Part shown: positions 1 through 30,646 of the stretch, piece by piece
How positions within the stretch are numbered: the stretch's first letter is position 1
Layout of the letters: each line of letters opens with the position of its first letter
Assembly (NCBI GenBank): GCA_965226585.1
Contig: OZ245366.1
Location: forward strand, 1,230,549-1,294,548
Reading direction: 5' to 3'
DNA length: 64,000 nt
From: Thermodesulfobacteriota bacterium
Lineage (GTDB): Bacteria; Desulfobacterota_D; UBA1144; Nemesobacterales; Mycalebacteriaceae
The notes under the pieces: generated by a model
What the model saw: the letters and a program-made list of their open reading frames with translations, nothing else
Databases searched by the model: none
Told to the model about the DNA's origin: nothing
Translations under genes and position numbers: made by a program

Positions 1-740
1 GGCGCGATATACACAACCGCATGCCCGGAGTTGTCAACCGAGAGAGCGGCATCATCAGAACCCGCAAGGGTAACCTCGCCCAAACCGTCAAGGGCAAGAT
101 ATACAACACCCGTTTCAAAACGCGGGGCGAATGAAAACCTGTCATCGCCGAAAGCCCTCTGAACCGCTCCAACCGCCGCCCATGTTCGCACATCGTTAAG
201 ACCGCGATACCTGTTGCCCGTTTCGCTTCGGGTCATATCCCATTCCGTTTGCGTGAGAGAAATACGGAAATCCGCGTCCACTATGTTTGCCACCGGAAAG
301 GCGGCGGTGATTGCCGCGAGATAACGGCTTGCGTCTGCGTCCGCTTTTGTGGCGGTTCCGCGACCGGCAACGTCAAGGTCAAAATCCAGAATTTCGTAAC
401 CAATGCCGAAAGTAACCGCCGCCCAAGGCAGGGGAAACTGAACGCCGCCGTTAAAGGTGTAGGCGTCTTCGTTCCAGTTTAGGGTTTTTTCGTGTTTTGA
501 AATCCGCGCTCCGCCGCCCGCCCATACGCAGATGCCGGTTTTAAGTTCCGCGCTTTCCCCCATTCCGCAACCGTCAAGCAGGGAAACGCCGAATTGTCTG
601 TCTGAGTGGTAGCCCGATTGGACAAAGGCGTCATAGAGCAGAAGCCCTCCTTCATCGCCGCTTGCGGGGGCTGTGTGGATTAAGGTTGTAAAAATAAGCG
701 CGAGGAGCGCAACTCCGAAAGAGGTGTCAAAACGCAACAT
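1..740 (-). CDS. Stand-alone autotransporter-type beta-barrel protein with signal peptide, no passenger (3' end truncated by window edge)
   Basis: Not in the ORF track; translated by hand from ATG at 740: MLRFDTSFGVALLALIFTTLIHTAPASGDEGGLLLYDAFVQSGYHSDRQF...CGMGESAELKTGICVWAGGGAR...EDAYTFNGG...PRFETG. Open to base 1 and colinear with the barrel domains of the other paralogs. Confidence 0.85.
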   Translation of the reverse strand, partial: MLRFDTSFGVALLALIFTTLIHTAPASGDEGGLLLYDAFVQSGYHSDRQFGVSLLDGCGMGESAELKTGICVWAGGGARISKHEKTLNWNEDAYTFNGGVQFPLPWAAVTFGIGYEILDFDLDVAGRGTATKADADASRYLAAITAAFPVANIVDADFRISLTQTEWDMTRSETGNRYRGLNDVRTWAAVGAVQRAFGDDRFSFAPRFETGVVYLALDGLGEVTLAGSDDAALSVDNSGHAVVYIA

Positions 741-1782
741 TAACTCTGCCTCTGAACCCGTGCACGAAAGTCTCAAACGAAGAACTCGCGCTGCCGTCAT
801 ATTCAAACCGCAGGTTCACCCTGCCGCCTTCATCGGCTACAAAATTCATTCCCAAGCCGTAGTCATACATTACGCGCTCAATTGTTCCGTTTGCTCTGAG
901 AGAATCGCCTCCGGCGGCGGCTCCCTTCCAGCGGGTTTCAGGGTAGTAAGTGGAAAGTATCTGCGCCCCGGCTTTGCCGAAAAGATTCATGAAATCCGTT
1001 ACGGGGTACTCAATGCCAAGCGAAGGGTTCAGGTATATCAAAAACTCACTCGTGTCTTCAAATGTAATGGCATTGTCCGCATCAGAACTTCCTTCCGCTT
1101 CCTCGCTGAAAGCGTCAACGGAAAGGTATGCCATTCCGATTTCAAAACGCGGGACCAAAACAAAGTCTCCCGCGAGAACGGGTTTTTCCACCCCGCCCGC
1201 GATTGACACGGTTCTCAAATCAGGCGATGCCGTGTAAGAGTCGCTTCCCGATGCGCGGCGGGTGTCCATTTCGGTTTGCGCTATTTGAATACGCATATCC
1301 GCGTCCATAGTGTTCAGGATGTATCTTGTGCCTTGTATTCCGGCGATAAATCTGTCTGTTGTCAGCCCGGCTTTGTCGGCTTGTCCGACTGCTTCAGAGT
1401 CAAAGTTTGAGGATTCGTAGGAGATGCCGAAATCTATTTCCGCGAAAGAAAATGGCGCGGAAACTCCGCCGGTGAATGAGTAGGCGTCTTCGTCGTATTC
1501 AAGCGAGGTGTTGTGGCGTGTGTATCTTGCGCCGGCTGAACCCCAGACGCACAATCCGCCGCCCATAAAACCTGTTTCGTCTGTTTCTGTGTCAGCTCCG
1601 GCGAGACAGCCGGATTTAAGTCTGCTTCCGAAAGCGGAGTCAGCATAAAACCCTGATTGTATGAGAGGGTCATAGACAAGCAGTTCGCCGTCTTGAGTCT
1701 GAGCCGCCGAGTTATGGGCGGCGAACCCGATTACAAGCAAAAGAAGGGCGATTATCGCGCCGTTTAGCCGAAAAGAAATCAT
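727..1782 (-). CDS. Stand-alone autotransporter-type beta-barrel protein with signal peptide, no passenger
   Basis: ORF 727..1815; ATG at 1782 preferred (AGGAG about 11 nt upstream). Hydrophobic leader ending AHNSAA-Q, then YDPLIQSG..C..GLCVW motif, amphipathic strands and terminal VNVAF. Confidence 0.85.
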   Translation of the reverse strand: MISFRLNGAIIALLLLVIGFAAHNSAAQTQDGELLVYDPLIQSGFYADSAFGSRLKSGCLAGADTETDETGFMGGGLCVWGSAGARYTRHNTSLEYDEDAYSFTGGVSAPFSFAEIDFGISYESSNFDSEAVGQADKAGLTTDRFIAGIQGTRYILNTMDADMRIQIAQTEMDTRRASGSDSYTASPDLRTVSIAGGVEKPVLAGDFVLVPRFEIGMAYLSVDAFSEEAEGSSDADNAITFEDTSEFLIYLNPSLGIEYPVTDFMNLFGKAGAQILSTYYPETRWKGAAAGGDSLRANGTIERVMYDYGLGMNFVADEGGRVNLRFEYDGSASSSFETFVHGFRGRVNVAF

Positions 1783-1874
1783 AATGAGAGTTTCTCCTGC
1801 GAGAGTGGTTGCCAATTTTCGCCTAAAAAGAGGCGAATATCAAGGGGAAATGTGGAAATACAACCTTCCCCCGC

Positions 1875-2072
1875 CATTCCGTTGCCTCCCTCCGTCATTC
1901 CGTTGCCTACCCTCCCTCATTCCGTTGCCTCCCTTCCGTCATTCCTGCGGAAGCAGGAATCCAGTATTGGTTAACCAGTTGAATACTGGATTCCGTGTCA
2001 AGCACGGAATGACGGAAGGGAGACAAGCGCGGAATGACGTGGGTGGCGTGTGTCAACAAGCACGGAATGACG
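1875..2072. repeat. CGTC-tagged palindromic (REP-dimer-like) element, core 1937..2014, with flanking partial units
   Basis: CGTCATTCCTGCGGAAGCAGGAAT-CCAGTATT..AATACTGG-ATTCCGTGTCAAGCACGGAATGACG; three CATTCCGTTGCC units on the left and two GGAATGACG units on the right. Confidence 0.9.
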
Positions 2073-2099: not shown

Positions 2100-5000
2100 C
2101 TAAAACGCCAGGTTTAGCCTTCCGGTGAAGGAGTGCACAAACGTTTTGAATGAAGAACTCATCCCGCCGTCATATTCAAAACTCGCGCTCACTGCTCCGG
2201 CGCCGTCAGATGAGAAATTAAACTCCATTCCGCCGCCGTAGGTGTGGGTGGAACGCTCAAGGGTTCCGTCAACCTGTGTGGGGTCGTCTTTTATCTTTAA
2301 CAGCGACTCATGCGTCTTGTTCAAAAGTATGTTGCTTCCGGCTTTTGCCCACACATCCACAAACTGCTGGGCGGGGTAGCGGAACTCTATTGACGGGGCG
2401 GTGAAGATAAACAACTTGTTCTCACCCTCAACGGCTATGCCGTCAAATCCGCTCTCTGTTATTGAATCCATCGCAACATGCGATAATCCCAACTCAAGGC
2501 GCGGAGTTATGTAAATCCCGCCCACTACTGACACTCTTTCAATTCCTGCGGTTGATGACAACGCCCTCAAACGGGGAGACGAAACGGCTTCCTGCTGAAC
2601 ACGGTTTGATTCCACATCGGAACGGCCTACCTGAATCCCAATATCAGCAATGAAAAGATTGGCTACCGGTCTTGACGCGCCAACTCCCACCATAAAACGC
2701 TCAACTTCCGCTTTCGTTTTTACATCAGCGCCTCTCACGCCTATGTCAAAGTTTGATGTCTCATATCCGCCCGCGATGGTAACTCCCGCAATGGCAAACG
2801 GTATGGATATTCCGCCCGAAAAAGTGAAAACATCTTCCTTGTATTCAAGCGTCCGCTTGTGGCTCACACTCCGCGAGCCGGTTGTCGCCCATGCGCATCC
2901 GCCGCCCGCCATCTCTTCAACTTCGCCCTCTGTTGAACCGCAACGCCCTCTCAGTTTTGACGCGAATGCCCTGTCTGTGTGCCACGCCGATTGTATGAAC
3001 GCATCGTAAGGCAGTAAGTTTCCGCCCGCTCCGCCCGGAGAAGCCAGACGGCTGAAACGTATCAGCAGGTCAAAGTCTTCATTAAATCTTGCCGAACCGC
3101 CGACTTTTGCCATTATGTTTGCGACCCTTGCCAGAACACTGTCGCGATTGCCGGAAGACAGAGACGCGGTTGTGTAAAGCGTGTAGTCAAGTTCCGTTGA
3201 GGCGTTGCTTGTTCCCATTATTGTCAAACTTGTTGCCAAGTCATCCGGTGAAACCGCCGCGCCGAGGTTAAAAATTGTCGCCGCGCCCGCCACGGTTACG
3301 CCTTCAGAGTCCGCCGCCGGTGTGAAGTCAACCGCCAGTATGCTTTGTCCTCTGAACAACGCTCTTTCAAGACCTGTAATTGTGTCATCCGCGCTGACTG
3401 TAAGCGTTCCGGTGGTTTCAAACGTGTCTGCGCCCGCGCCGAAGTCTATAACTCCCGCTCCCGCAAGCGTCAGCCTGCCATCGTTGTTGAAGGTGTCTGC
3501 GCCCGTGCCCATTTCCACCGTTGCGCCGCCGGGGGCAAGTGTCAAAACTCTTGAGCCAAGATTGTTGAAGGTGTCGTCTCCGCCTTTCATATCCACAACG
3601 CCCGTGAAGGTTCCGGTGTTGTTGAAGATGTCGCCGCTGCCTCCCATGTATGTGTCTCCGTCTATTTCGCCGTCATTTTGTATCTCGCCCGCGCCCGTTC
3701 CGGTCATGTTCACGGCAAACCAGGCTCCACTGACAAACGTGCCCGCGCCAATCTCAAGTGTCATATTTCCGCCGTCTGATTTGGCGTATATCCCGCGCGT
3801 TCCGCGCGGTGTTGCGCCGTTGCCCGAAACGCGGCTTCCTGAACCGCTTAATGTAATTGCCACATCTCCGCCGTCAGATTCGGCATATATTCCGTATGCT
3901 CTCGCGTCGCCCCTCGACTCGCCCCGGGCAGTTACATTCGCGCCGTTTGCCACCGTAACACTCACATCTCCGCCTGTTGCGGTTGATGCGTTGACGGTTG
4001 CCGCTTCCTGGCTTACCGTCCACACTTCCGTGCCGGAAAGAACAAGGTTTGTTTCCACTCTAATCGCGTCTGCGCCGGGGCTGTTTGACCACACTTTCAC
4101 ATTGCCGACTGTTGCCGTTCCGCCAGCCGGGGCGAAAACACTTGCCACTTTCGCGGCTGATTGGATTGTTCCGTGTGTCCAAATCTCTCCCGTTCCGTCT
4201 CCCGTGATTGTAATATCCGCCGTGCGGGGAGCCACTGATGAAATCCCGTATCTTCCTGAGCCGCCGATTCCGGAGGTGGAGGCGCCGGCATCAGACCGCA
4301 CTTTTCCGCCGCCCGTAATGCTCACCGTATCCGCTTCAATGGTGTTGCTTGTTCTTCCACTGCTCCACACCAGCGAGCCGCCGCTGACGGTAACTGTGCC
4401 CGCTCTGACAGCTTTTCCGCCGGCAACGGATTGCGCAGACACGATTGCGCCACTGTAAATATCTGCGGTTTGCGCGATGATTGCCACGCCTCTTGGACCT
4501 CTTGCAATCACTCTTGAGTCGTCAACCACTACCCTTCCGGTTGCGTTTATGGTTGTGCCGTCTCCCGAAGAATGGGAATCCTTCCGCACTGTTGAGTCGC
4601 CGGTAACGTTCACAGACGCCGCCGCGATAACGTTGGTTGAGAAACCTGCCGTTGAAACCGTAGAGGCGTCAACATTCACGTGCCCTGTTGCATAGACCGA
4701 TATGACTCTATCGGTAGCACTGTTGGACAAGACATTTGACCCGTCCGTGATATCTACATTTCTCGCGTTGACTGTTATTCCGCGGGTTCCGGTTGTCCAC
4801 ACATTTGACCCGCTGATACTCACACTTGAGGTAGTCGCGTGGATGGCTCTTTTAGATCCATCCCCGTCAGCCCACACATTTGAGCCGGTAACATTTACAT
4901 TTGTGCCATACGACCATAACGCCCAACCGTCTCTCGCCCACACCTGCGAATCGGTTATGTCCACGCCTGCCGCCCAAACGGCTATACCTTCTGATTCAGT

Positions 5001-8000
5001 CCGCACATTTGAACTGGTTATATTCACGTGTGCTGTTCGTCCCCTTATTGCCGTTGACGAACCGGTTCCACCCTGTACCCAAACATTGGAACCGGTAACA
5101 TTCACAACTTGCCCCGACCCCGCTTCCGCGTTAATTGCCGCGCTGGTGTCGCCTCTTGCCCACACTGTTGAGCCGTTGAAAACTTCTATCGTTCGCCCTC
5201 TGATTCCGTCTGACCGTGCCGCGTTCCCCAACACATTTGCCCCGCTGATGATTACTCTTCCCGCTTCCGCAACAATGGCTCCGGTTTGAGATATGTTTGT
5301 CCACACATTCGCGCTGTTGTGCACTTCCACCGTTCCGGTGGATGTAAAGATTCCGTCCGCCGTGCCGCCGTCCGACCACACACTTGAGTCGTCAACAAAC
5401 ACACTTCCTCTGAACGATGTAATGGCGGCGTTTGCCCCGCCGTTTGCCCATACCATTGCCTTGTTGAATATCCGCGCCGTTTGCGCGTCCACGCCGTTTC
5501 CTGCCGATTCCGTCCAAACTTGCGCTCCGTTCACGGTTGCCGTTCCGGTGGCAAAAACCGCGCTGCTTGCCGCGCCGTTAATCCACACTTTCGCCCCGCT
5601 CACTATTTCCGCCGTTCCCGCCGCAACCGCGTCCATATCCGGGCCGCTTCCCTGCGCCCAAACCTCTGTGCCTGTGCCGTTGACCACCGCCAGAACAGTC
5701 GCGACAATCGCCGAGCCGCCATTTTCAACCGCCCAAACTTTTGCGCCGTTATAGACGCGAGTCGTGTCCGCCGTTATCGCGTTGGTTATCCCTAAGGTGT
5801 TAGTCCACACTTGCGCGCCGCCGTCCACTATTGCGGTTGCCGCCCGTATCGCGTCCGTTCCGTTGTGTGTCCACACTTGGGAAGAGGAGTTGATGAAAGC
5901 GGATTGCGCTATAACGGCTCTGCTTCCCGCGCCGTTTGACCATACTTTAGAACTGCTTTCGGTTACCGTTTTAGTTCCGTTGATTGCTTCTCCGGTCTCG
6001 CCTTCCGCCCAAACTTCGGAGCCGGTAACGGTTGCCTCGCCTGAGGTAATGGCGATGCTGTTCTCGCCTTCCGCCCAAACTTTTGAGCCGCTCCGAACCA
6101 CCGTTCCGGTAGAGTTGATTGAGTTGCTGTCTATGCTCTCCGTCCACACTTCGGAACTGTCAACGGTTACGACTGAATCGGCGGAAGTGGCGGAAATCGC
6201 GTTGCTTGTTGAGCCGTTTGCCCAAACCTTCGCGCCGTCTATAATTCTCACATCAGCCGTAATAGCGGATGAAAAATCTCTCGCCCTGATTGATGATGAA
6301 GTGCCGCCTTCCGACCACACTTCCGAGTTTCTGACGGTTACAACCCGTCCGGTGATCGCGCTACTGCTTACGCCGTTCGCCCATACCTTTGCGCCATTGG
6401 TAACGGTAACTCCGAGGGAGGCGGTGGCCGGGATGGTATCCTGAATTGATATGGAACTGCCGCCTTCCGTCCACACTTCCGCGCCGTTGACGATTATGTC
6501 ATTTCCGGCGACCGCTCTGCTTCGGCTTCCGTTTGACCATACTTTCGCGCCGTTTTCAATAGTTGCTCTCTCGAAAACTACGACTGCGTTGGTGTCTGCG
6601 CCTAATGTCCACACATTTGAGCCGTTGACGATTACACCACTGCCGCCGCCCCCGGTAATGGCGCTGGCTCTTATCATGTTTGCCCACACATTTGAGCCGT
6701 TGTAGATTCCCGTGGTTCCTCTGCCGATTGCAAGCGCGGCGTAGCCCACAGCGTCTGTCCATATATCGGAGTTGTCAACGGTTGCCGTTTGCGCCCTCAA
6801 AGCCGTGCGGCTACTGCGGTTAGACCACACCTTGGATTCGTTGAAAATATCCACATGGCTTGCTCTCGCGACTATTCCGTTCGCGTCTGTTCCTTCCGCC
6901 CACACCTGCGAGCCGTTGACGGTTACACTGCCCGCTCTGAATTCGGTTACAGTAATGGCTGAGCCGCCCGTGCCGTTAGCCCATACTTTCGCGTTGTTTT
7001 CAACATCCACACTCGCGCCGCTGATTAATCTGATTGCGTCACGGATTGCGCCTTCCCTCCACACTTCCGCGTTGTTGACTTTTACGGATGACGTGCTTCC
7101 GGTCGCGTAAAGAGCTTCGGATGAACTGCCGTTAGACCATACTTTCGCGCCGTTTTCTACGATTATCTCGCCGCCGTCTCTCGTATATACCGTCCAACCG
7201 CTGCCGCCGGTAGTCCATACCTCTGTGCCACTGCCGTTGACTCTTACATCAGAGCCGCCGCGTGTTTCAATTGCTGTGGCGGCGATAGTGTTAGCCCAAA
7301 CTTTTGACCCGTTGTACACGCTCACCGAACCCCCGCCGAGTGAAAGGGCTGCATAAGAGCCGGCCGCCGCCGACCAAACCTCTGTGCCCGTGCCGTCAAC
7401 GGTTACGGTGCTTGAGTTAATGGTTACCGCGCTCGCGCCGTTAGACCAAACTTTTGACCCGCCGTACACACCCACACCCACAGAGCCTGAACTGCCGATT
7501 GTCTGAGAGGGCGCGCCCGCACCGCCGCCTTGCGTCCATACGTTTGACCCGCCGTTGATTGTTACGGTTGTAGCGTTAATGGCTTGCGATGATGTGCCGT
7601 TAGCCCATACCTCGGAACCGTTGACGTTCACCTGCCTGCCGAGAATACCGTTGCTTCTGACTCCGTTTGCCCCAACCTTTGAGCCGTTCACAACATTCAC
7701 CGTGCTTCCGGTCGCGTCTATTGCTTTACCGAAACTGCCGTTAGACCACACTTGCGAGCCGTTGATATCTACCCTGCCTCCGCCGGAGATTGCGCTAATG
7801 GCTGAACTGCTCGTGCTGCCGTCAGACCACACTTTCGCGTTGTTTTCAACATCCACACTCGCCCCGCTGATTGATGTGATTGCTCTACTGCTTCCGCCGC
7901 TCTGCCACACTTCCGCGTTGTTGACTTTTACGGATGAACCGCTTCCGGACGCATAAATGGTGTCTACTGCGGAACTGCCGTTAGACCAAACTTTCGCTTC

Positions 8001-19984: not shown

Positions 19985-19998
19985 GAAAGGCAAGTATC

Positions 19999-20057: not shown

Positions 20058-23000
20058 ATGTCTAAAACCGCAACCACTCTTATTCTGCTTTCTCTCTTAC
20101 TCGCGCTTGCCGCGCCGCCCTCTTATGCACAAACAGCAACAACCGTTGTAGTCAACGGCTCTGAAGAGCGGACGGAAGACGACGGAAGCAACACAATAGT
20201 GGCGGAAACGGTCAACATTGTGAACGAAGGAAAAGTGTGGGCAAGCGGAGAGAATAGTTCGGCGATTGCTTCGGGAAATTCGGGAAACGTTACTATTATT
20301 TCAGGAGACGGAACGGGAGAGGTTTGGACAACCATTAGCGGCGTTTCAACAGTGAATGCGACAGGAACGGCGGAAATCAAAAACCTGAAAGTGTGGGCTA
20401 ACGGTCGCTCAAGCAATGCGGCTAAGGCGGCAACGGCAATAATCAACGGAGCACAAGTTTGGACGAACGGAAACTTTTCAAGAGCCGTGTTTGCGACCAC
20501 GGCGATTGTTCACGGCGCGGACGTTTGGGCTGACGACAGCATTGGAGGCATCGCTATTTACACACCGCTCGGAACAGCAACCGTAAGTAACAACTCGCAG
20601 GTTTGGGCTAACGGCGTTGGAGGCATGGCTATTTTCACACCGGGCGGAACAGTAACCGTAAGTAACAACTCACAGGTTTGGGCTGACGACATTGGAGGCA
20701 TCACCATTTACGCACTGGGCGGGACAGTAAATGTAAGCAACTCGCGGGTTTGGGCTGACGACACTGGAGGCATGGCTATTTTTACAACGGTCGGGACAGC
20801 AACCGTAAGTAACAACTCACAGGTTTGGGCTAACGGCGGTGAAGGCAGAGCCATTTACGCACCGGGTGGAACAGCAAATGTAAGCAACTCGCGGGTTTGG
20901 GCTAATGGATTTGGAAGCACCGCCATTATTGCGAATAACGTAGAGATTGAAGGTTCTGATGTTTGGACGGAAGAAGATTCCTCCGTTGTTACAATCAGCT
21001 CGGGAATTTCAAGCGTGAACAGTTCAAACCTTACTGCTTATAAGGACGGAAAGGTTTTTGCTCTGGACGCAAGCGAGGGCGACATTGAACTCAACCTTCA
21101 CAACTCAACAATCGGGTTTAATGGCGCAGGCGGAGAGTTTTTTAAGATTATTGACACAGAAGACAGCGGAACAGTAAACATTCAATCCCGCAACTCATCT
21201 TTCTGGATGGGAAAAGAGAACGCGGCTGTTTTCTCAACCATAGTAGAGGCGAACGGAACGGTAACAGACCGGATTGGTGAATTTGAACTGACAGACAGCA
21301 TTGAAATTTCCGATATGAACAGAGTATGGACAAAAGGCAAAAACGGCGCCGCCTTCTCTCTTGACTACCAAGGGATGAATGATGTGAAAATCAGCGAATA
21401 CTTCAACGCTCAACAGGCATGGACGGAAGGGGATAACAGCAACACAATCCGCATAAATACGGGAACCGGAGATGTCTCATTCGCCACCACCAGCAAGATA
21501 TGGGCAAACGGCGCGAACAGTTCGGTGATAAGTGCGGAAACCGGCGGCGGAGATGCGAACATTGAAATAGGAGCAGACCATAGTGTCTGGACAAGCGGCG
21601 TGAATTCTGTGGCAGTTAAGGCAAAAGCAACCGGAGCGGGAAACGCAAGCGTCTACACCCGTGCGGGCGCAAGGATTTTCACAAATGCGGCGGATAGTGT
21701 GGCGGTTTTTATTCGGGCAGGCGGTTCGGCTGGAAGCAGTGGAGTAGAGTTAAACATTGGAAATGGCTCGGTTGTGTGCGGTGGTGTGTTTTCAGATTCA
21801 AGTGACTGCACACAGGGAGCAAATTCTTACGCCGTGCAGTTTGAGTCTGAGGAAGGAGATACAAAAATAGTAATCGGCGCGGGCGGCTCTATAGCGGGAG
21901 TGGTGTTGCTTTCAGAAAAACGCGATTTTATCTACAACAACGGTTCTTTCACGGGTTCGGGAACAACCGGAGACGGTGATGATACGGTTGAAAACAAGGG
22001 AACTTTCACCCTCACCGGAGATTTTGACATGGGAGACGGTGAAGACATTTTCCAAAACAGGGGCACAATAAACGGCACGGGTATGGTCATATACGGTGAC
22101 GATGACGAAGTTGGTGGGCTTTCTACGCCCGCCCGTCATTCGTCCGCGCCCTCCCGTCATTCCGCATCCTCCCCTTCCCGTCATTCCGTGCCTGACACGG
22201 AATCCAGTATTCAACTGGCTAACCAATACTGGATTCCTGCTTCCGCAGGAATGACGGAGGGGGCAGGAATGACGGGGGAGGCAGGAATGACGGGGGAGGG
22301 GTCAGCAAGCGGCGACAGCCGTTTCCGCCTTTCCGCCGCCGCGCCGGAACGGGAGCCGGAACGGGTAACCATCAACTTTGGCGATGGCGATGACCATTTC
22401 ATAAACGAAGGCACAGTAGTTCTTGGAGGCACGGGCGGCTTTAACGGCTTGGACAAAATAACCTTCGGCGTGAACTCAACCCTTGTTGTCTCGGCAGACC
22501 CTGAAGAAATGAATGACAAACCGCTCATAGATATTGAAGGCGAGATAACTGCGGAAGATATTGAGGGTTTTAGAGTCAGGGTTGATGTTCCCGGAACGCA
22601 CGTAACGGAATACACAATTTTTGAAGCGGATGACTTGCCGGACGGCGAGGAAAGGCAGGAAGTTGTGGAGCGTCTGAATGCGGAAATAGGCGAAAGGGGA
22701 AGTGTTCAGACAGATGGAGACGGCAATCTGTTTTTGACAGCAATATCGTTAAAAGACGCCAGTTTGGATATTTATGACTCTCTCATCCAATCCGCTTACC
22801 GCGCAGACAGGAGTTTTGCCACAAAACTTTCAAGCGGTTGCGGTTACGGATCTGCGGCGAGTGATGAGATAGACGGAGATTTCTGGACTGGTTGTGTGTG
22901 GGCAACATCGGGCGGAAGATACACACGTTATTCTTCAGCAATTAACTATGATGAAGATGCCTATACCTTCACCGGAGGCGTTTCAGCTCCGTTCAACAGT

Positions 23001-23723
23001 ATCCTTGTCTCGGTGGCAGGCGGTTATGAAATCTCAACCCTTGATATGGATGTGCTGACTGATGAAGGCAGGGCAGACGCAAGCGGAGAAGCGACAAGAT
23101 TTATGGGCGGTATCTTTGCCTCCACAATAGTGGACAGATACATGGTTGACGGCAGGTTTCAGTATGTTTCTACGAGTTGGGAGTCAACCCGCTCTGATGG
23201 AGATAACCGTTACTCTGCGGATACAAACGCGACAGTATTCGGCGGCGCGCTTAGCGCGGCAATGCCGTTTTTGTCCGGCAGTTTCGCGTTATTTCCCCGC
23301 ATAGAGATTGGAGCGTCTTATGTAACAGCGGGCGCGTTTGATGAGACTTCCTTAACAGACTCAGAAGAGGCAAGGGCTGATGCTTTCAAGGTAAAAGACA
23401 CAAGTGAGATATTGGTATATGTAAGTCCGTCATTTGAGGCGCGTTCACCTTTGAGTGAAACGGTAAATATGAGAATTCGCGTGGGGGCGGATATACACAT
23501 CTTGAACCCTGAAGCCGACCTTGAGGCAACTCTTGATGGCGGTAGCGTTCCCCGAAGCGGCGGGCAGGACCGGATAATGTTCAACTACGGCGCAGGTTTT
23601 GAATACACACCGTATGCTCCTCTGCGGGAATTGAGTGTAAGGATTGACTACGATGGCGGAATGAGCGCGAGTTTTGATACTTTCGTGCAAGAGTTCAGAG
23701 GCGGCGTTAATTACAGTTTTTAA
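20058..23723 (+). CDS. Autotransporter adhesin-like protein (1221 aa) with in-frame palindromic element
   Basis: Signal peptide ending PSYA-Q, VSNNSQVWA repeats, GDGDD repeats, barrel ending VNYSF. Confidence 0.9.
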   Translation: MSKTATTLILLSLLLALAAPPSYAQTATTVVVNGSEERTEDDGSNTIVAETVNIVNEGKVWASGENSSAIASGNSGNVTIISGDGTGEVWTTISGVSTVNATGTAEIKNLKVWANGRSSNAAKAATAIINGAQVWTNGNFSRAVFATTAIVHGADVWADDSIGGIAIYTPLGTATVSNNSQVWANGVGGMAIFTPGGTVTVSNNSQVWADDIGGITIYALGGTVNVSNSRVWADDTGGMAIFTTVGTATVSNNSQVWANGGEGRAIYAPGGTANVSNSRVWANGFGSTAIIANNVEIEGSDVWTEEDSSVVTISSGISSVNSSNLTAYKDGKVFALDASEGDIELNLHNSTIGFNGAGGEFFKIIDTEDSGTVNIQSRNSSFWMGKENAAVFSTIVEANGTVTDRIGEFELTDSIEISDMNRVWTKGKNGAAFSLDYQGMNDVKISEYFNAQQAWTEGDNSNTIRINTGTGDVSFATTSKIWANGANSSVISAETGGGDANIEIGADHSVWTSGVNSVAVKAKATGAGNASVYTRAGARIFTNAADSVAVFIRAGGSAGSSGVELNIGNGSVVCGGVFSDSSDCTQGANSYAVQFESEEGDTKIVIGAGGSIAGVVLLSEKRDFIYNNGSFTGSGTTGDGDDTVENKGTFTLTGDFDMGDGEDIFQNRGTINGTGMVIYGDDDEVGGLSTPARHSSAPSRHSASSPSRHSVPDTESSIQLANQYWIPASAGMTEGAGMTGEAGMTGEGSASGDSRFRLSAAAPEREPERVTINFGDGDDHFINEGTVVLGGTGGFNGLDKITFGVNSTLVVSADPEEMNDKPLIDIEGEITAEDIEGFRVRVDVPGTHVTEYTIFEADDLPDGEERQEVVERLNAEIGERGSVQTDGDGNLFLTAISLKDASLDIYDSLIQSAYRADRSFATKLSSGCGYGSAASDEIDGDFWTGCVWATSGGRYTRYSSAINYDEDAYTFTGGVSAPFNSILVSVAGGYEISTLDMDVLTDEGRADASGEATRFMGGIFASTIVDRYMVDGRFQYVSTSWESTRSDGDNRYSADTNATVFGGALSAAMPFLSGSFALFPRIEIGASYVTAGAFDETSLTDSEEARADAFKVKDTSEILVYVSPSFEARSPLSETVNMRIRVGADIHILNPEADLEATLDGGSVPRSGGQDRIMFNYGAGFEYTPYAPLRELSVRIDYDGGMSASFDTFVQEFRGGVNYSF
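20523..20910 (+). repeat. About five near-identical 66-69 bp coding repeats
   Basis: GT(A/V)(T/N)VSN(N)S(Q/R)VWA(N/D)xxxGxAI(F/Y) units with strong DNA identity. Confidence 0.85.
22134..22292. repeat. In-frame CGTC palindromic element (core 22179..22256)
   Basis: Reverse-orientation copy of the intergenic core; encodes RHSVPDTESSIQLANQYWIPASAGMT. Confidence 0.92.
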
Positions 23724-23752: not shown

Positions 23753-26700
23753 TTGTCTAAAAAATTATCCTGTATTATTCTGTCTACTCTCTTATTTGCA
23801 TTTTCCGCGCCGTCATCCTCTTACGCGCAACCAGCAGTCTTCGAAATCTGTGGCGACAAAAGCATCATACCCAACGCAGTCAATTTAAGATGTATCTCCA
23901 CAACCGGAAACGCAGTTATTATCCTGTACCTTCCTGGTGCCGAATTTACTGAAGACAGTGGCAACTTTAGTCTGCTCAACGCCACCGAAGCGGGTGCGGA
24001 TGCAATCTTTAACACTCACGCTATAAAGATCACAACAACCCAAACAGGCGGAGATACTATAATTATCGGCGGCGCGGGAAACGCTGCTTTCAGAGCCGAT
24101 GACGAAGCATTTACCATCAAATCTGGCGGCGGGAATGTTGTTACTATGACAGCCGGAACGGGTGATGCGAATATAGAAATTTACAATCAATCAAAAGTTC
24201 AAATTGAATCAACCGGCGGCGGGAACGGAATTGTCGCTTCAAGCGAAAGCGGAGATGTGTTTGCGGACTTCTCCAATCAAGGGAGAATCTATTCAGTTCA
24301 AGATGACGCGACCGGGTTTATCGCGACAACCAACGGCGGTGAAATCAGCGCGAATTTTGACGGTTTGTATTCAAGAATACTTATGTACCCCGTAGGCAAT
24401 CACGGTGGCTCATCAGACGCCAAAGGCGCGACACTCACATCCACAAGCGGCGATATAAGTGTTTTGCTTACAAACTCCTCGGCAATCCTCGCCCCGTCTC
24501 TGGGAGATTCCCACGGCTTGGAGGCGGTAACGGGAGGGGACGGCGACATAAACATACATTTGCAAAATGGAAACGCCTGCATAGTCGGCAGAAACGGGGT
24601 TAAAGCCACTACTGTTGACGGAGATATAAACATATACCTGTCGAACGCGCTGATTCGCGGCATAGGCACAGGCGGACGGGCTTTGAATGCAACATCTACA
24701 AACGGAGATATCACAATCACAGGCGATGGCACGGGCAATATCAACTCTGTTAGTAACGTCGTCTATCTTGACACCAGCGGCGAGGCAAACATCAGCGGTG
24801 TCAGAATCGGGACAGAAGCCGGTACGGCTGTCGAGTCAACGGGAAACCTGACTGTTTCAAACGCAGAGATTTGGGCGAACGGCAATTCTAGCGATGCGGT
24901 GAAAGCACAGACGGTACATGTATCGGGCGGAATGATCTGGACTAACGGCTTTTCTAGCGAGGCGGTGAATGCACAGACGGTGTATGTATCGGGCGGAATG
25001 ATTTGGACTAACGATTTGTTTAGCGATGCGGTGGAAGCACAGACGGTGCATGTATCGGGTGGAATGATTTGGGCGAACGGCAGCGGTGCATTGTCCTCAG
25101 AGACGGTGAATGTGTCGGACGGAATGATCTGGACAACCGGCGATGTTGATGATGCGGTGTCCTCAGATACGGTGAATGTGTCGGGCGGAATGATTTGGAC
25201 AATCGGCGATTCTAGTGATGCCGTGGACGCAGATACGGTAGTGAATGTGTCGGGCGGAATGATTTGGGCTAACGGCAGATCTAGCGAGGCGGTGAAAGCA
25301 CAGACGGTGTATGTGTCGGGTGGAATGATTTGGGCTGACGGCTCCCATGGCGCAGCGGTGAGTGCACAGACGTTAGTAAATGTGTCGGACGGAATGATTT
25401 GGGCTGACGGCTCCCGTGGCACAGCGGTGAATGCACAGACGGTAAATGTGTCGGGTGGAATAATTTGGTCTAACGGCTCGAATAGCCATGCGGTGAGTGC
25501 ACAGACGGTAAATGTGCCGGGCGGAATAATTTGGTCTAACGGCTCCGGCATATTATCCAGTGCTGTGTTTCTCAGAAACATAGAAGGTCCAGCGGAGTTG
25601 AAGGTTGGAGGAGGCGCGGTTGTGTGCGGCGGTATACTTTCGGGTTCTGTCTGCACGGCGGGTGGCTCTGACGTGCATGCCGTGCGTGCTGATGACTTTG
25701 CAACCACTGGCGGAACGATAACAACCGAAGACGGCGGCAATATAACGGGCAGAATTTTGCTTTCAAAACACAACGATGTTTTCTACAACAACGGCTCATT
25801 CACCGGACACGGAAACACCAGAGGCGGCGATGACAGGGTTGAAAACAAGGGAACCTTCACCCTGACTGGAGACTTTGAAATGGGTGAAGGCGATGACACT
25901 TTTGAAAACAAAGACAGTGGAATGGTAGTTTATGGCAACCACTCAATAATCGCAGAAACCAAGCCTGACCCACCCTCCACGCAACAATCCTCTCCTTCCC
26001 GTCATTCCGCATCTTCACCTTCCCGTCATTCCGTGCTTGACACGGAATCCAGTATTCAACTGGCTAACCAATACTGGATTCCTGCTTCCGCAGGAATGAC
26101 GGAGGGGGCAGGAATGACGGAGGGGGCAGGAATGACGGAGGGGGCGGGAATGACGGAGGGGGCAGGAAACAGCCGTTTCCGCCTATCTTCTGCAGACCCC
26201 GCCCCTGCGGACACAACCGCAACCATTAACTTCGGAGATGGCGATGACCATTTCATAAACAATGGCACAATCGTAATTCAAAACACAGGCGGATTTGCGG
26301 GGCTGGAGAAAATAACCTTCGGCGAAAACTCAACCGTAATGGTTACCGCAGACTCTACAGAAATGACAACAGACAAACCCCTCATAGAACTTGAAGGCGA
26401 GATAACTGCGGAAGATGTTAAAGACTTAAACATAAAATTAGCCAACCCTGAAAGACATTCAGACGAATTTTCTTTATTCAGTGAAACCGCCTTGCCAGAC
26501 AGCGAAGCCGAAAGGCAAGAGGTATTGAGCATGATAAGCGGCGGGCTTGGTGAAGGCAGTAGCGCGGGGATGGATTCAAACGGCAACATATTTGTTGTGC
26601 TTGCAAATTCCGTCCACTTTAACTACTTGAGAAACTATGACGCGATGATTCAATCCGCTTACCAATCGGATAGTGCCTTTTCAGAAAAACTGCGAGGCAG

Positions 26701-27529
26701 TTGCTACGGCGGAGAGGCGGAAACACAAGATTTAAGCGGCGGCTGTCTCTGGGCAGACGCAGGAAGCCGTCACACACGGCACGACACAAAGGTTAAATAC
26801 GGAGAAGATGCCTATGTATTTGCCGGAGGTTTGTCCATCCCCGCAGGGCAGTCCGCCGTGTCAATCGGCGCGGGTTATGAAACATCAGACTTTAACGCCG
26901 GAACGGACACAAACGCGGCGGGTGAGCGTTTTATGGCAGGATTATCAGTAGCAGGTGAGATTTGGAAAAGAATTATCGCAGATGCAAGAACACAGTTTGC
27001 AAAAGCGGCATGGGAATCAACATCCGCAAGGGGAGAAGATACCTACTCCGCAAAGACAAATATAACAACGTGGTCTGCCGCAATAGGGGCGGAAATGCCA
27101 TTCTTTCCCGGTGGTGTATTTATGGTGGTTCCGCGTCTTGAAGCGGGAGTAGCCCGTGTATCTGCGGATGGTTTTACAGAAACCGGAGACATGCCTCTTT
27201 CTGTTGAAGGATTATCACAAACATATTTGCGTGTAACTCCATCAGTAACGGCTTATGCTCCCGCAGGGGAAAGTGTAAATATGTGGATGACCGCCGGAGC
27301 GGATGCTCACTTAACAGACCCCAAAACAGACTTAAAAGCCGCCTTTTCCCCTGATGACCCGGTAAATACAAAAGGCGGACTTGAACGCATAAACATAAGA
27401 TACAGCGCGGGTGCAGAGGTAAGTCCGTTAAAAGGTGTAAGTGTTCGTGTGGCGTATAGCGGCGGTGTTTCCACTACCTTTGATACGCTTACGCAGACAT
27501 TTACGGCAAGGTTCGGAGTGGCGTTTTAG
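23753..27529 (+). CDS. Autotransporter adhesin-like protein (1258 aa) with in-frame palindromic element
   Basis: GGAGG 7 nt before TTG start, signal peptide ending SSYA-Q, TVxVSGGMIW repeats, barrel ending FGVAF. Confidence 0.9.
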   Translation: MSKKLSCIILSTLLFAFSAPSSSYAQPAVFEICGDKSIIPNAVNLRCISTTGNAVIILYLPGAEFTEDSGNFSLLNATEAGADAIFNTHAIKITTTQTGGDTIIIGGAGNAAFRADDEAFTIKSGGGNVVTMTAGTGDANIEIYNQSKVQIESTGGGNGIVASSESGDVFADFSNQGRIYSVQDDATGFIATTNGGEISANFDGLYSRILMYPVGNHGGSSDAKGATLTSTSGDISVLLTNSSAILAPSLGDSHGLEAVTGGDGDINIHLQNGNACIVGRNGVKATTVDGDINIYLSNALIRGIGTGGRALNATSTNGDITITGDGTGNINSVSNVVYLDTSGEANISGVRIGTEAGTAVESTGNLTVSNAEIWANGNSSDAVKAQTVHVSGGMIWTNGFSSEAVNAQTVYVSGGMIWTNDLFSDAVEAQTVHVSGGMIWANGSGALSSETVNVSDGMIWTTGDVDDAVSSDTVNVSGGMIWTIGDSSDAVDADTVVNVSGGMIWANGRSSEAVKAQTVYVSGGMIWADGSHGAAVSAQTLVNVSDGMIWADGSRGTAVNAQTVNVSGGIIWSNGSNSHAVSAQTVNVPGGIIWSNGSGILSSAVFLRNIEGPAELKVGGGAVVCGGILSGSVCTAGGSDVHAVRADDFATTGGTITTEDGGNITGRILLSKHNDVFYNNGSFTGHGNTRGGDDRVENKGTFTLTGDFEMGEGDDTFENKDSGMVVYGNHSIIAETKPDPPSTQQSSPSRHSASSPSRHSVLDTESSIQLANQYWIPASAGMTEGAGMTEGAGMTEGAGMTEGAGNSRFRLSSADPAPADTTATINFGDGDDHFINNGTIVIQNTGGFAGLEKITFGENSTVMVTADSTEMTTDKPLIELEGEITAEDVKDLNIKLANPERHSDEFSLFSETALPDSEAERQEVLSMISGGLGEGSSAGMDSNGNIFVVLANSVHFNYLRNYDAMIQSAYQSDSAFSEKLRGSCYGGEAETQDLSGGCLWADAGSRHTRHDTKVKYGEDAYVFAGGLSIPAGQSAVSIGAGYETSDFNAGTDTNAAGERFMAGLSVAGEIWKRIIADARTQFAKAAWESTSARGEDTYSAKTNITTWSAAIGAEMPFFPGGVFMVVPRLEAGVARVSADGFTETGDMPLSVEGLSQTYLRVTPSVTAYAPAGESVNMWMTAGADAHLTDPKTDLKAAFSPDDPVNTKGGLERINIRYSAGAEVSPLKGVSVRVAYSGGVSTTFDTLTQTFTARFGVAF
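24868..25550 (+). repeat. About 10-11 tandem 60-69 bp coding repeats (AQTVxVSGGMIWxxGxxSxAV)
   Basis: Repeated GGAAT(G/A)AT(C/T)TGG and CAGACGGT DNA anchors. Confidence 0.9.
26000..26168. repeat. In-frame CGTC palindromic element (core 26024..26101) plus 18-bp satellite
   Basis: Encodes RHSVLDTESSIQLANQYWIPASAGMTEG followed by three more AGMTEG units. Confidence 0.92.
26170..27529 (+). repeat. ~1.36-kb near-identical direct repeat, partner at 29281..30646
   Basis: C-terminal ~450 aa of two adjacent autotransporters differ by about a dozen residues and one 6-nt indel. Confidence 0.95.
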
Positions 27530-27549
27530 AGACGCGGACGCGCCCACTC

Positions 27550-27593
27550 CGTCATTCCGTGCCTGACACGGAATCCAGTATTCAACTGGCTAA
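27550..27593. repeat. Half copy of the CGTC palindromic element
   Basis: CGTCATTCCGTGCCTGACACGGAATCCAGTATTCAACTGGCTAA; second arm missing. Confidence 0.85.
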
Positions 27594-27712
27594 TTTCATA
27601 TATATTAAAAAAACAAACAAATGTCATTGCCACAAAAAATATTTTTTTTCTCTCGTTTTTCCTCACCGCTGTAACGCTTACGGCAATTGCACCTGTTCCC
27701 GCTTATTCGCAA

Positions 27713-30646
27713 TTGCAATTCAATTATTGCGACAACCCTCCCCCTCCCTCTGCGACTTGCACCCCAGACAACATATACATCCGATTTTATCACGAACACA
27801 TAAGAACCGTACTGCTTGAACCTCCGGACAAAACCTCCGTTGATGAAACAACCGTCCGTGACGGAACCATCACCATACTCTTTAACAAACAAGGCAGAAT
27901 TGCATCAAGAGTACCGGATGGCGCGAACGGGATTTTGGCAACAACTGAAAACGGCGATATGACCGCAACTTTTGACGGACTGGGTTCGGGAATCTTTATG
28001 TATCCAAGTGGCAAACGCGACACCTACTCAAATGCCAGAGGCGCGACATTCACAAGCGATAGCGGCAATATAAGTGTTTTACTAACAAACTCTGGGTCAA
28101 TCCTCGCGCCGTCTCTGGGAGATTCCCACGGCTTTGTGGCTCAAACGGGAGAGGACGGAGATATAGACATAGTGATGAAAAACGGGAACTCATGCATAGT
28201 AGGCAGAAACGGTGTTAAAGCAACTACTGTTGACGGAGATATACGCATAGAACTGTCGGGCGCGCTGATTCGCGGTATAGGCACAGGCGGATGGGCTTTG
28301 AATGCAACATCGGTAAATGGAGATATCACAATCACAGGCGATGGCACGGGCAACATTGCCTCTCTGAATCATAATAGCAGCGGCGTTTATCTTGACACCG
28401 ATGGTGAGGCAAGCATCAGCAATATTGATATATGGACGCAAGGAGATGGCGGCACAACAATAGAATCGGTGAGCGGCTTGCGTGTAGTATCGGGAAACAT
28501 CTGGGCTAACGGCTCGGGCGGCAATACGGTGGAAGCGGGAACTGTGAATGTGTCGGGCGGAGATATTTTTACGACAGTCCATAACAGCAATGCGGTGGTT
28601 GCGCAGGCGGTGAATATATCGGGTGGAGGGATTTGGACACTCAGAGGCGGGTCATCAGAGAGCATTTTCAGTACCGCCGTGCTTCTCAGAAACGAAGACG
28701 GGCAAGCGGAATTAACGGTTGGAGGAAGCGCGATTGTGTGCGGCGGTGCGCTTTCGGGCATAATCTGCACGGCAAGCGACTATGGCTATGCCGTGCGTGC
28801 TGAGACCCCGGCGGCGACCTATGGCACAAAGATAACAACCGAAGGTAGCGGCAATATAACGGGCAGAATTGGGCTTTCAGACAACAGCGATGTTTTCTAC
28901 AACAACGGCTCTTTCACCGGACACGGAAACACCGGAGCCGGTGATGACAGGGTTGAAAACAAGGGAACCTTCACCCTCACCGGAGATTTTGAAATGGGTG
29001 AAGGCGATGACAGCTTTGTGAACATAGACGGCGGAATGGTAGTAGGCGATGACACTCACACAATAACGCCTACACCGACTACGGGAACACAATCCTCTCC
29101 ACCCCGTCATTCCGCATCCTCTCCTTCCCGTCATTCCGTGCTTGACACGGAATCCAGTATTCAACTGGGTTACCCAATACTGGATTCCTGCTTTCGCAGG
29201 AATGACGGAGGGGGCAGGAATGGCGAGAGTGGGGAATGTCATTCCGCGCCTGCGTCTTCCACCCCGTCAGCAAGCGGCGACAGCCGTTTCCGCCTCTCTT
29301 CTGCAGACCCCGCCCCTGCGGACACAACCGCAACCATTAACTTCGGCGATGGCGATGACCATTTCATAAACAACGGCACAATCGTAATTCAAGATACAGG
29401 CGGCTTTGCGGGCTTGGAGAAAATAACCTTCGGTGAAAACTCAACCGTTATGGTTACCGCAGATTCTACAGAAATGACAACAGACAAACCCCTCATAGAA
29501 CTTGAAGGCGAGATAACCGCAGAGGATGTTAAAGACTTAAACATAAAATTAGCCAACCCCGAAAGACATTCAGACGAATTCGCCCTGTTCAGTGAAACCG
29601 CCTTGCCTGATAATGAAGCCGAAAGGCAAGAGGTATTGAGCATGATAAGCGGCGGTCTTGGTGAAGGCAGTAGCGCGGGGGTGGATTCAAACGGCAATAT
29701 ATTTGTTGTGCTTGCCAATTCCGTTCACTTTAACTACCTGAGAAATTATGACGCAATGATCCAATCCGCTTACCACTCGGATAGTGCCTTCTCAGAAAAA
29801 CTGCGCGGCAGTTGTTACGGCGGGGAAGCGGAGACACAACATTTAAGCGGCGGCTGTCTCTGGGCAGACGCAGGAAGCCGTCATACGAGACACGACACAA
29901 AGGTTAAATACGGAGAAGACGCTTATGTATTTGCCGGTGGTTTGTCCATCCCCGCCGGGCAGTCTGCCGTATCAATCGGCGCAGGTTATGAAACATCAGA
30001 CTTTAACGCCGGAACTGATACAAACGCGGCAGGTGAAAGGTTTATGGCAGGATTATCAGTAGCAGGTGAGATTTGGAAAAGAGTTATCGCGGATGCAAGA
30101 ACACAGTTTGCAAAAGCGGCATGGGAATCAACATCCGCAAGGGGAGAAGATGCCTACTCCGCAAAGACAAATATAACAACATGGTCTGCCGCAATAGGGG
30201 CGGAGATGCCGTTTTTCCCCGGTGGTGTATTTATGGTGGTTCCGCGTCTTGAAGCGGGAGTAGCCCGTGTATCTGCGGACAGTTTCATGGAAACCGGCGG
30301 CGGAGATATGCCTCTTTCTGTAGGCGGATTATCACAAACATATTTGCGTGTAACTCCATCGGTAACGGCTTATGCTCCCGCAGGGGAAAGTGTAAATATG
30401 TGGATGACCGCCGGAGCGGACGCTCATTTAACAGACCCCAAGACAGACTTAAAAGCCACCTTCTCTCCTGATGACCCTGTGAATACAAAAGGCGGTTTTG
30501 AACGCATAAACATAAGATACAGCGCGGGTGCTGAGGTAAGTCCGTTAAAAGGTGTAAGTGTTCGTGTTGCGTATAGCGGCGGGGTTTCCACTACCTTTGA
30601 TACGCTTACGCAGACATTTACGGCAAGGTTCGGAGTGGCGTTTTAG
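27713..30646 (+). CDS. Autotransporter adhesin-like protein; natural start probably ATG 27621, out of frame (frameshifted leader)
   Basis: 977-aa ORF paralogous to 23753..27529. The in-frame upstream codons read IFFLSFFLTAVTLTAIAPVPAYSQ (signal-like) but have no in-frame ATG/GTG/TTG. Confidence 0.85.
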   Translation: MQFNYCDNPPPPSATCTPDNIYIRFYHEHIRTVLLEPPDKTSVDETTVRDGTITILFNKQGRIASRVPDGANGILATTENGDMTATFDGLGSGIFMYPSGKRDTYSNARGATFTSDSGNISVLLTNSGSILAPSLGDSHGFVAQTGEDGDIDIVMKNGNSCIVGRNGVKATTVDGDIRIELSGALIRGIGTGGWALNATSVNGDITITGDGTGNIASLNHNSSGVYLDTDGEASISNIDIWTQGDGGTTIESVSGLRVVSGNIWANGSGGNTVEAGTVNVSGGDIFTTVHNSNAVVAQAVNISGGGIWTLRGGSSESIFSTAVLLRNEDGQAELTVGGSAIVCGGALSGIICTASDYGYAVRAETPAATYGTKITTEGSGNITGRIGLSDNSDVFYNNGSFTGHGNTGAGDDRVENKGTFTLTGDFEMGEGDDSFVNIDGGMVVGDDTHTITPTPTTGTQSSPPRHSASSPSRHSVLDTESSIQLGYPILDSCFRRNDGGGRNGESGECHSAPASSTPSASGDSRFRLSSADPAPADTTATINFGDGDDHFINNGTIVIQDTGGFAGLEKITFGENSTVMVTADSTEMTTDKPLIELEGEITAEDVKDLNIKLANPERHSDEFALFSETALPDNEAERQEVLSMISGGLGEGSSAGVDSNGNIFVVLANSVHFNYLRNYDAMIQSAYHSDSAFSEKLRGSCYGGEAETQHLSGGCLWADAGSRHTRHDTKVKYGEDAYVFAGGLSIPAGQSAVSIGAGYETSDFNAGTDTNAAGERFMAGLSVAGEIWKRVIADARTQFAKAAWESTSARGEDAYSAKTNITTWSAAIGAEMPFFPGGVFMVVPRLEAGVARVSADSFMETGGGDMPLSVGGLSQTYLRVTPSVTAYAPAGESVNMWMTAGADAHLTDPKTDLKATFSPDDPVNTKGGFERINIRYSAGAEVSPLKGVSVRVAYSGGVSTTFDTLTQTFTARFGVAF
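29105..29246. repeat. In-frame CGTC palindromic element (79-bp core 29129..29207)
   Basis: Same element with one extra base in the central loop. Confidence 0.9.

Follow-up and report, generated by a model that had tools for sequence, protein, structure and literature searches.

Two gene clusters of a probable lineage-specific type Va autotransporter family with variable passengers, a conserved export module and an in-frame hairpin element

Six genes that share a C-terminal domain, designated A to F, were identified within positions 1-30646 of a 64-kb stretch of contig OZ245366.1 (the window, by which we mean the whole of the DNA analyzed), with A, B and C on the minus strand and D, E and F on the plus strand. 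The genes are arranged in two clusters, in the order C-B-A and D-E-F, and are treated here as candidate members of one autotransporter family. Genes A (3-740, minus strand) and B (727-1815, minus strand) are passenger-less, in that a putative signal peptide runs straight into a linker helix and barrel. The 3' end of A is cut by the window edge, leaving 246 of 347 amino acids (aa) inside the window, and residues 23-268 of its open reading frame (ORF) match residues 1-246 of P0010 (347 aa) at 100% identity. The ORF of B is 362 aa long, its likely start being the ATG at 1782, which gives a 351-aa protein that is 100% identical to P0005. Gene C (2100-10691, minus strand; 2863 aa) carries 62 copies of a [VIM]W rung motif and no copy of the hairpin element described below. 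Gene D (20058-23723, plus strand; 1221 aa) has 15 such motifs and a 75-nucleotide (nt) rung array at 20539-20927, and gene E (23753-27529, plus strand; 1258 aa) has 13 motifs and a 66-nt rung array at 24868-25544. The main ORF of gene F (27713-30646, plus strand) has five motifs and is 977 aa long when counted from its first TTG; its open frame extends back to 27530 and encodes the remainder of a putative signal peptide. As judged by eye, the putative signal peptides of A to E each open with K/R-rich residues, continue as a hydrophobic core and close with an (A/S)x(A/S/G) site ahead of Q or D, and that of F is split by a frameshift. These ORF calls agree with an earlier interpretation made from the letters alone (the sequence-only reading), which had listed two members without a passenger and four of 977, 1221, 1258 and 2863 aa.

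The claim of the same reading that the six paralogs have one type of barrel was borne out by an alignment of their C-terminal ~310-325 aa over 335 columns, in which the other proteins are 34-37% identical to B and 28 columns are invariant. Among the invariant columns are two cysteines (C33 and C52 of B in alignment numbering), present in all six paralogs, which lie on either side of a variable, acidic loop connecting the linker helix to the first strand. To our knowledge, a disulfide-closed loop at this position is not known from solved translocators. An AlphaFold model of the B barrel, built from the six-sequence alignment, consisted of a helix (residues 6-31) and 12 main strands, with a predicted local distance difference test score (pLDDT) of 78.3, low in the acidic loop, and a predicted template modeling score of 0.78. 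When this model was compared with the PDB using Foldseek, ranks 1-14 were all type Va translocators (EstA, NalP, AaaA, EspP, Hbp, AIDA-I and BrkA), at expect values (E) of 2e-17 to 3e-11 and template modeling (TM) scores of up to 0.73-0.80. Three barrels scanned on their own were recognized by the autotransporter model PF03797, those of E (55.7 bits), F (49.9 bits) and C (43.8 bits), where 26 bits is the cut-off. Searching 1.84 billion cluster representatives with a profile built from the six domains identified 170 sequences at E <= 0.001, of which 44 were at <= 1e-10 and 20 at <= 1e-30; in a Pfam check that covered 70 of the 150 listed hits, PF03797 was carried by 2 of the 25 near hits and by 39 of the 45 more remote ones. 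Searches of PDB sequences with B, D and E returned nothing below E 0.05. The C-terminal residue is F in B, C, D, E and F, and the same residue ends 17 of 18 listed relatives, with C to F of the window counted and two partial proteins left out. The family, as such, forms a small and divergent offshoot within the autotransporter beta-domain family and is not an unknown barrel. The assignment to type Va in the sequence-only reading was thus upheld, by PF03797 in three of the six barrels, by the barrel model and by the 14 structural matches, whereas its statement that the family was unrecognized was not, given that the C, E and F barrels pass PF03797 alone and that most of the remote profile hits carry it. 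The proteins are predicted to belong to a well-described class (type Va) with its standard architecture, and to be exported to the cell surface.

The family extends beyond the window, and the earlier count of six members was an undercount. A protein search with the C-terminus of E, which took in proteins of 691-2202 aa only, gave 11 matches, nine of which are on one contig of 1,484,247 bases, a length identical to that of the only contig that carries B. These nine further members are P0155, P0007, P0156 and P0157 (93-96% identity over the last 459 aa) and P0158, P0014, P0159, P0012 and P0160, and we infer that they are paralogs elsewhere in the window's own chromosome. Summed by length, the six window genes and these nine total some 20,400 aa, equivalent to about 61 kb and to around 4% of the 1.48-Mb contig. 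The other two matches to E, P0019 and P0020, are by their NCBI names proteins of Thermodesulfobacteriota metagenome-assembled genomes (MAGs), as is P0009, the sole match to the C-terminus of C, and the named relatives are Thermodesulfobacteriota MAG proteins only. Longer relatives found in the profile search were P0008, P0013, P0016 and P0017. The partial proteins P0019 and P0020 both end at identical residues (…YETSDFNAGTDT) inside the conserved barrel module; contigs therefore apparently break where several paralogs are near-identical, and short-read assemblies probably undercount this autotransporter family. A search with PyrG of species-representative genomes gave 80 loci at 53-63% identity, the nearest (61-63%) being mostly from Desulfobacterales- or Geobacter-type MAGs, and neither the hairpin element nor a relative of the barrel was present in any of those 80 loci (1.30 Mb). 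No close genome was among these matches. A pattern scan of the genome collection with B produced 165 matches, none of them a relative.

In the four passenger-bearing proteins of the window the [VIM]W motifs are spaced mostly 22-27 residues apart, and the arrays are visible as tandem repeats at the DNA level, with a period of 75 nt in D (5.3 copies, 77% matches) and of 66 nt in E (10.3 copies, 79% matches). An AlphaFold model of mature D, made from an 11-sequence alignment, had a mean pLDDT of 63.8 and showed short strands over residues 1-650, three per rung, with confidence (means of 10-residue blocks) that was >80 over the first ~290 residues and ranged from 32 to 93 beyond them. The best matches to this model in Foldseek, all weak, were Ag43, pertactin (probability 0.97, TM score 0.45 on the target) and PL6 alginate lyases, every one of which is a right-handed beta-helix. 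A search of the ESM Atlas with residues 1-700 of D returned scores of 0.81-0.84 only, and the BigA pectate-lyase-like and PATR entries among them are leads, not evidence. Based on the rung motifs, the tandem arrays and the modeled strands of D, the passengers are predicted to be beta-solenoids built of 22-27-residue Trp rungs, as had been proposed when repetitive beta-helical passengers were noted in the sequence. No match covering the rung repeat was found in Pfam, NCBIfam or PDB sequences, so that it lies outside the coverage of the two family collections, and searches of the same three sources identified no adhesin, enzyme or lectin domain in any passenger.

A second feature of the locus is a palindromic element, which the sequence-only reading had correctly placed both inside and between the genes. 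The element is ~86 nt long, with two short palindromes, inverted relative to each other, enclosing a third, and one unit folds as a single hairpin of -49.8 kcal/mol (z = -9.4), a stability reached by none of 200 shuffles. Its right half occurs 11 times and its left half 10 times, versus 0 expected from 100 shuffles, with all occurrences within 1-30 kb of the window, and three of the 11 copies are in coding sequence, one each in D, E and F. Units of 18-24 nt that share GTCATTCC border the copies. Outside the genes, one copy is between B and C (1935-2020, plus strand), following tandem GTCATTCC units of 21-22 nt (1867-1945); two copies (15619-15704 and 15709-15794) are accompanied by 20-nt GTCATTCC units at 15517-15794 (plus strand), in the gap separating the RNase II-family gene from an oxidoreductase gene that converges on it; four tandem copies (19575-19990, plus strand) with a 110-nt period (3.7 copies, 96% matches) lie between ptsP and D; and a half element comprising one hairpin (27548-27595, minus strand) is found just past the stop codon of E. 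The in-frame elements are at 22122-22305 in D (minus strand; core 22170-22262), with three 18-nt units (22245-22299) encoding AGMT(E/G)(G/E), at 25988-26186 in E (minus strand; core 26015-26107), with 4.4 units of 18 nt (26090-26168), and at 29093-29249 in F (minus strand; copy at 29116-29216). All three sit in a Pro/Ser-rich linker, where the 18-nt units encode AGMTEG repeats (four AGMT motifs in E and three in D; 4.4 and 3.1 copies, respectively, in Tandem Repeats Finder). In the model of D the element-encoded stretch falls within a segment (residues 656-744) with a pLDDT of 21-24 and is predicted to be disordered. F reads the second half of the element in a different frame than D and E do, and the frame of the gene is regained downstream.

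Within the disordered linker, the element is located precisely at the boundary between the variable passenger and the conserved translocation module, and of 13 passenger-bearing members 8 have its peptide at this position. The element-free proteins are C, P0157, P0014, P0012, P0160, P0019 and P0008; at the aligned site P0019, P0008 and P0014 have no element, half copies are present in P0020 and, in reverse orientation, in P0015, and the number of 18-nt units ranges from 0 to 4 among members. The frame switch in F and the reversed half copy in P0015 imply that no fixed peptide is needed and that the site tolerates arbitrary sequence.

Both among the paralogs and between this genome and that of a related MAG, rungs have been gained and lost, a block has been duplicated and low-identity passenger blocks form a mosaic, and the differences extend to the presence and orientation of the element and the number of its 18-nt units. 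The block duplication of ~834 bp that had been noted was confirmed, in C, as two copies of ~0.75 kb at an 834-nt offset (6953-8534, minus strand; copies 6953-7700 and 7796-8534). The copies are 79-80% identical in nucleotide sequence overall and 92% identical over a 180-nt core (7524-7703 versus 8358-8537); in the protein they span residues 997-1246 and 719-965, which are 70% identical and hold about 11 rungs apiece, with a synonymous divergence (dS) of 0.30 and a nonsynonymous divergence (dN) of 0.23. Between C and its counterpart P0009 (2806 aa) in another MAG, 2391 of 2928 aligned columns are identical, with indels of 102 and 48 aa, i.e., about four and two rungs, and the identity in 100-residue windows is mostly 86-98%, with several blocks at 25-70%. 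E carries about 750 nt of rungs that are missing from F, and in E coordinates the comparison of these two genes is a mosaic: the 5' end is unalignable, identity is 72-83% at 24345-24790 and 66-89% at 25534-26260, and it rises to 89-96% over the last 1.3 kb. Rung-level expansion, which had been proposed from the letters, is thus evident in the motif counts (62, 15, 13 and 5) and in the 75-nt and 66-nt arrays, and unequal recombination or slippage between rung repeats of 66-75 nt could give rise to the length changes.

The conserved 3' module of E begins at the downstream edge of the element (26169-27529, plus strand) and matches 29280-30646 of F at 1272 of 1367 columns (93.1%). A conserved 1.36-kb C-terminus had therefore been rightly noted, its description as near-identical being generous. 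The module has a dS of 0.28 and a dN of 0.015, compared with 0.41-0.45 and 0.20 upstream of it, and dN/dS is about 0.05 in the export module versus 0.45-0.76 in the passengers, which would thus appear to evolve almost neutrally or under diversifying pressure. Because 72 of the 89 substitutions in the module are at codon position 3, the proportion of synonymous differences (pS) is 0.24 and there is no long identical tract, the identity of the E and F 3' ends is best read as an old duplication under strong purifying selection and not as recent recombination. The differences are evenly spread, and the longest identical run of 63 nt compares with a median of 67 under random placement. Recent gene conversion or recombination between the two 3' ends was ruled out on these grounds. 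The broader proposal that the locus varies by recombination and slippage is plausible for the changes in rung number, and failed for the 3' identity.

The homopolymer-associated frameshift that had been noted was also borne out, at the start of F. The likely true start of F (27621-27674, plus strand) is an ATG at 27621 that opens a 17-codon frame (MSLPQKIFFF...) running through an A6 run and a T8 tract (27642-27649) to an in-frame stop at 27672-27674, and the rest of a good candidate signal peptide (...LSFFLTAVTLTAIAPVPAYSQ) is encoded, together with the 3-kb ORF, in the frame offset by one base. The T8 tract is one of two homopolymers of at least 8 bases in the window, the other, an A8, lying in frame within ptsP. 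In a related MAG, the F-like protein P0019 starts MPQKIFFSLSLFL... and reads through intact; it has more rungs and no element. Since the 3' module of F is without decay (dN/dS of about 0.05 against E), the break either arose recently, can revert (phase variation) or is an artifact of assembly. Phase variation of F is plausible, with one state of the tract having been seen.

Taken together, we interpret the region as two clusters, in an uncultured and sulfate-reducer-like bacterium, of a lineage-specific and strongly expanded type Va family in which variable passengers are carried on a conserved export module, a reading to which we assign a probability of about 0.78. A full member would consist, in order, of a Sec-type signal peptide, the beta-solenoid passenger, a Gly/Asp-rich GDDxFxNxG region, the Pro/Ser-rich disordered linker, a last beta-strand segment, a pore-plugging alpha-helix and a 12-stranded barrel ending in Phe. 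The likely role of such proteins is a variable adhesive or protective surface coat, whose target could be a host, a partner cell, a surface, phage or a predator. The host association expected in the sequence-only reading found no support here, and an adhesin function, phase variation and an active role for the element are conjectural. Several observations weigh against this interpretation. Scans of all six full-length proteins with Pfam (at E <= 0.01 and at <= 10) and NCBIfam assigned no family, and the barrels of D, B and A were below the PF03797 cut-off even when scanned alone, so the membership of these three rests on their alignment to C, E and F and on the predicted fold. The barrel in the model of D was poor (pLDDT about 30-40), and Foldseek with the whole D model gave no matches at E <= 0.001. 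Furthermore, C, D and E themselves were absent from the results of the protein-database searches, from which it follows that the deposited annotation may differ from the ORF calls used here; the placement of the nine extra members on the window's contig was deduced and not directly seen; and the T8 tract of F is short for a phase-variable one. The HMM (hidden Markov model) search with PF03797 that had been proposed as a check was positive for none of the six full-length proteins and for three of the six barrels (C, E and F). That scans of six repetitive full-length proteins miss a domain which barrel-only scans recover in three of them is of wider relevance, as it means that such families easily stay "hypothetical" in MAG annotation. 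In NCBI, the relatives are named either "hypothetical protein" (P0009 and P0019 among them) or "beta strand repeat-containing protein".

Within this interpretation, the meaning of the break in F and the role of the proteins are the points at which other explanations deserve most weight. Homopolymer miscalls are common in some sequencing chemistries, and there is a chance only a little short of even that the frameshift is no switch at all, being either a sequencing or assembly error in an intact F or a fixed inactivation that has made F a young pseudogene. The T8 tract exceeds 14 other runs in the window, each of 7 bases, by a single base, a second length of the tract was not seen, and no promoter-like site was found upstream of F in the scan. 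Conversely, the break falls within the first 10 codons, in the region of the signal peptide, as do the switch tracts of Chlamydia autotransporters (PMC6740158). The 3-kb ORF without a stop and the low dN/dS of the 3' module also exclude long-standing decay of F, leaving error or very recent loss as the plausible forms of this explanation. As for the role, it is conceivable, with a probability that we place below one half, that the proteins are not adhesins and serve instead as a protective coat against phage or predators, or as contact proteins between syntrophic partners. Consistent with such a role are the passengers in which no adhesin, enzyme or lectin domain was found, the fact that the named relatives are proteins of Thermodesulfobacteriota MAGs and not of known pathogens, and the size of the family in relation to its contig, but the closest structural matches, weak as they are, include Ag43 and pertactin, which are self-associating or adhesive autotransporters.

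The remaining alternatives concern the element and the module downstream of it, and we judge each of them to be unlikely. One is that ongoing gene conversion maintains the near-identity of the C-termini in E, F and four more paralogs, the converted tracts being bounded upstream by the element. The protein identity of these six E-type paralogs does step from 0.7-0.8 to 0.94-0.98 directly after the element, over the last ~420 aa, as against a mere 34-37% for the remaining barrels of the family, and dS is somewhat lower downstream of the element than upstream; the third-position changes in E and F, their even spread and the longest run being no longer than random placement gives nevertheless speak against a recent tract in these two genes. 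We hold it to be less probable still that the in-gene elements are a functional coding module, such as a flexible spacer or cleavage site, and the intergenic copies regulatory hairpins that act as terminators or stabilizers of mRNA. The constant linker position in 8 of 13 members, the very stable fold, the half copy that trails the E stop codon and the four tandem copies between ptsP and D would all fit this explanation. It is difficult to reconcile, however, with members and relatives that have no element (C, P0157, P0014, P0012, P0160 and P0019), with the other frame used by F and the opposite orientation in P0015, by which no particular peptide is required, with the predicted disorder of the stretch, and with the result that no terminator-like T-run follows the element copies. 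Scans for promoters and terminators in the DNA upstream of D and F scored no better than shuffled sequence, and an Rfam search over the element array (E <= 1) gave chance-level matches only, with 18-22 bits against gathering thresholds of 55-80. Finally, the presence of the element at the junction of variable passenger and conserved module in 8 of 13 members, and in arrays adjacent to the genes, means that it could serve as a portable homology patch, or as the target of a REP-type transposase encoded elsewhere, for swapping passenger cassettes onto a fixed export module. We consider this a long shot; if true, it would amount to a programmed surface-variation system, together with a homopolymer switch and the in-frame array of 18-nt units. 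Under the preferred reading of a type Va family with a tolerant linker, a REPIN-like element that is in frame at one linker of one family would be an unusual and neat example of coding sequence that tolerates selfish DNA.

The surroundings of the two clusters are those of an ordinary chromosomal region. Between the clusters are the transfer-messenger RNA (tmRNA) gene, a Ham1-family gene, pyrG, the RNase II-family gene, the oxidoreductase gene and ptsP, and the remainder of the window encodes Mla transport, housekeeping genes and ribosomal-protein operons. The guanine-plus-cytosine (GC) content is 0.49-0.56 and even over both clusters and the rest of the window, and therefore gives no sign of a foreign origin for either cluster. 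A genomic island at the tmRNA gene was considered and ruled out, in that C-B-A is on the 5' side of ssrA and has a GC content like that of the rest of the window. The tmRNA gene (10869-11218; tag peptide GEPINALAA) is 178 nt from the start of C, and smpB (30643-31092) is on the strand opposite to F with a 4-nt overlap with its stop codon, so each autotransporter cluster is flanked by one half of the trans-translation pair. Two ORFs without a Pfam match are probably not real genes: that of 226 aa at 15498-16178 (plus strand), which overlaps the element array and the oxidoreductase gene, and that of 202 aa at 10926-11534 (minus strand), which overlaps the tmRNA gene. A 465-aa ORF (33289-34686, minus strand) directly upstream of the MlaE, MlaF and MlaD genes is likewise without a Pfam match. 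At 44011-46689 the gene order is secY-adk-map, then S13, S11, S4, rpoA and L17; this arrangement fits non-gammaproteobacterial lineages, such as the former Deltaproteobacteria, and is in that respect consistent with the Thermodesulfobacteriota label of the relatives. A tRNA-Ser(CGA) gene (61967-62056) is followed by a low-GC stretch (0.397) that encodes an N6/N4 DNA methylase as well as a restriction enzyme like CfrBI, and 61931-63998 is probably an acquired restriction-modification island at the tRNA. In agreement with the sequence-only reading, a Pfam scan of 152 closed ORFs of at least 90 aa and two open-ended ORFs in the window gave no match to a recombinase, transposase or reverse transcriptase.

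If the preferred interpretation of an expanded type Va family is correct, a strategy of Chlamydia, Rickettsia and mucosal pathogens, in which many paralogous autotransporters with fast-changing repetitive passengers on a fixed export module are combined with a homopolymer break, would also be found in an uncultured Thermodesulfobacteriota-like lineage. Of interest are a Trp-rung passenger that is specific to this lineage, a family of such size and the hairpin element that is in frame at the junction of passenger and translocator. The family resembles the type Va proteins (pertactin, Ag43 and AIDA-I; NalP, EspP and EstA) in its putative signal peptide, predicted beta-solenoid passenger, pore-plugging helix, 12-stranded barrel and terminal Phe. 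It differs from them in a (V/I)W rung every 22-27 residues that is outside the Pfam and NCBIfam models, in barrels so divergent that those of D, B and A are below PF03797, in the invariant cysteine pair between helix and first strand, and in two members that are passenger-less.

Among known families, the closest in behavior, and in behavior only, are the chlamydial Pmp proteins. According to PMC6740158, these too are a large paralogous autotransporter family in a small genome, with short repeated passenger motifs, duplication, pseudogenization and homopolymer frameshifts near the gene start, the pmpG genes being turned on and off by frameshifts at such tracts. The repeat motif and the phylum are different here, the Pmp repeat and middle domain (PF02415 and PF07548) had no match in the six proteins even at E <= 10, and the tract is T8 and not poly-G/C, with one state seen. 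A similar comparison applies to the phase-variable autotransporters of Campylobacter and Neisseria, in which homopolymer tracts are tied to decay or switching; those tracts vary in length between sequenced strains, whereas in F there is one state (PMC7168839, PMC5953494). With regard to the element, the likeness to REPINs is in two inverted short palindromes that form one long hairpin, in clustered and tandem copies and in single-REP remnants (PMC3116915, PMC3337134); REPINs are described as extragenic, whereas 3 of the 11 copies here are translated, in a window without a RAYT. Palindromic repeats or miniature inverted-repeat transposable elements that occur both between genes and in frame, adding a peptide at a tolerant site, are on record in PMC10969869, and the Rickettsia palindromic elements (RPEs) described there share with the present element their short palindromic form, their intergenic and in-frame copies and the addition of a peptide in a tolerant region. 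The likeness to RPEs is one of behavior. The element here is ~86 nt with flanking GTCATTCC units of 18-24 nt, and unlike the RPEs, which are found in unrelated housekeeping genes, its in-frame copies are all at one linker of one family.

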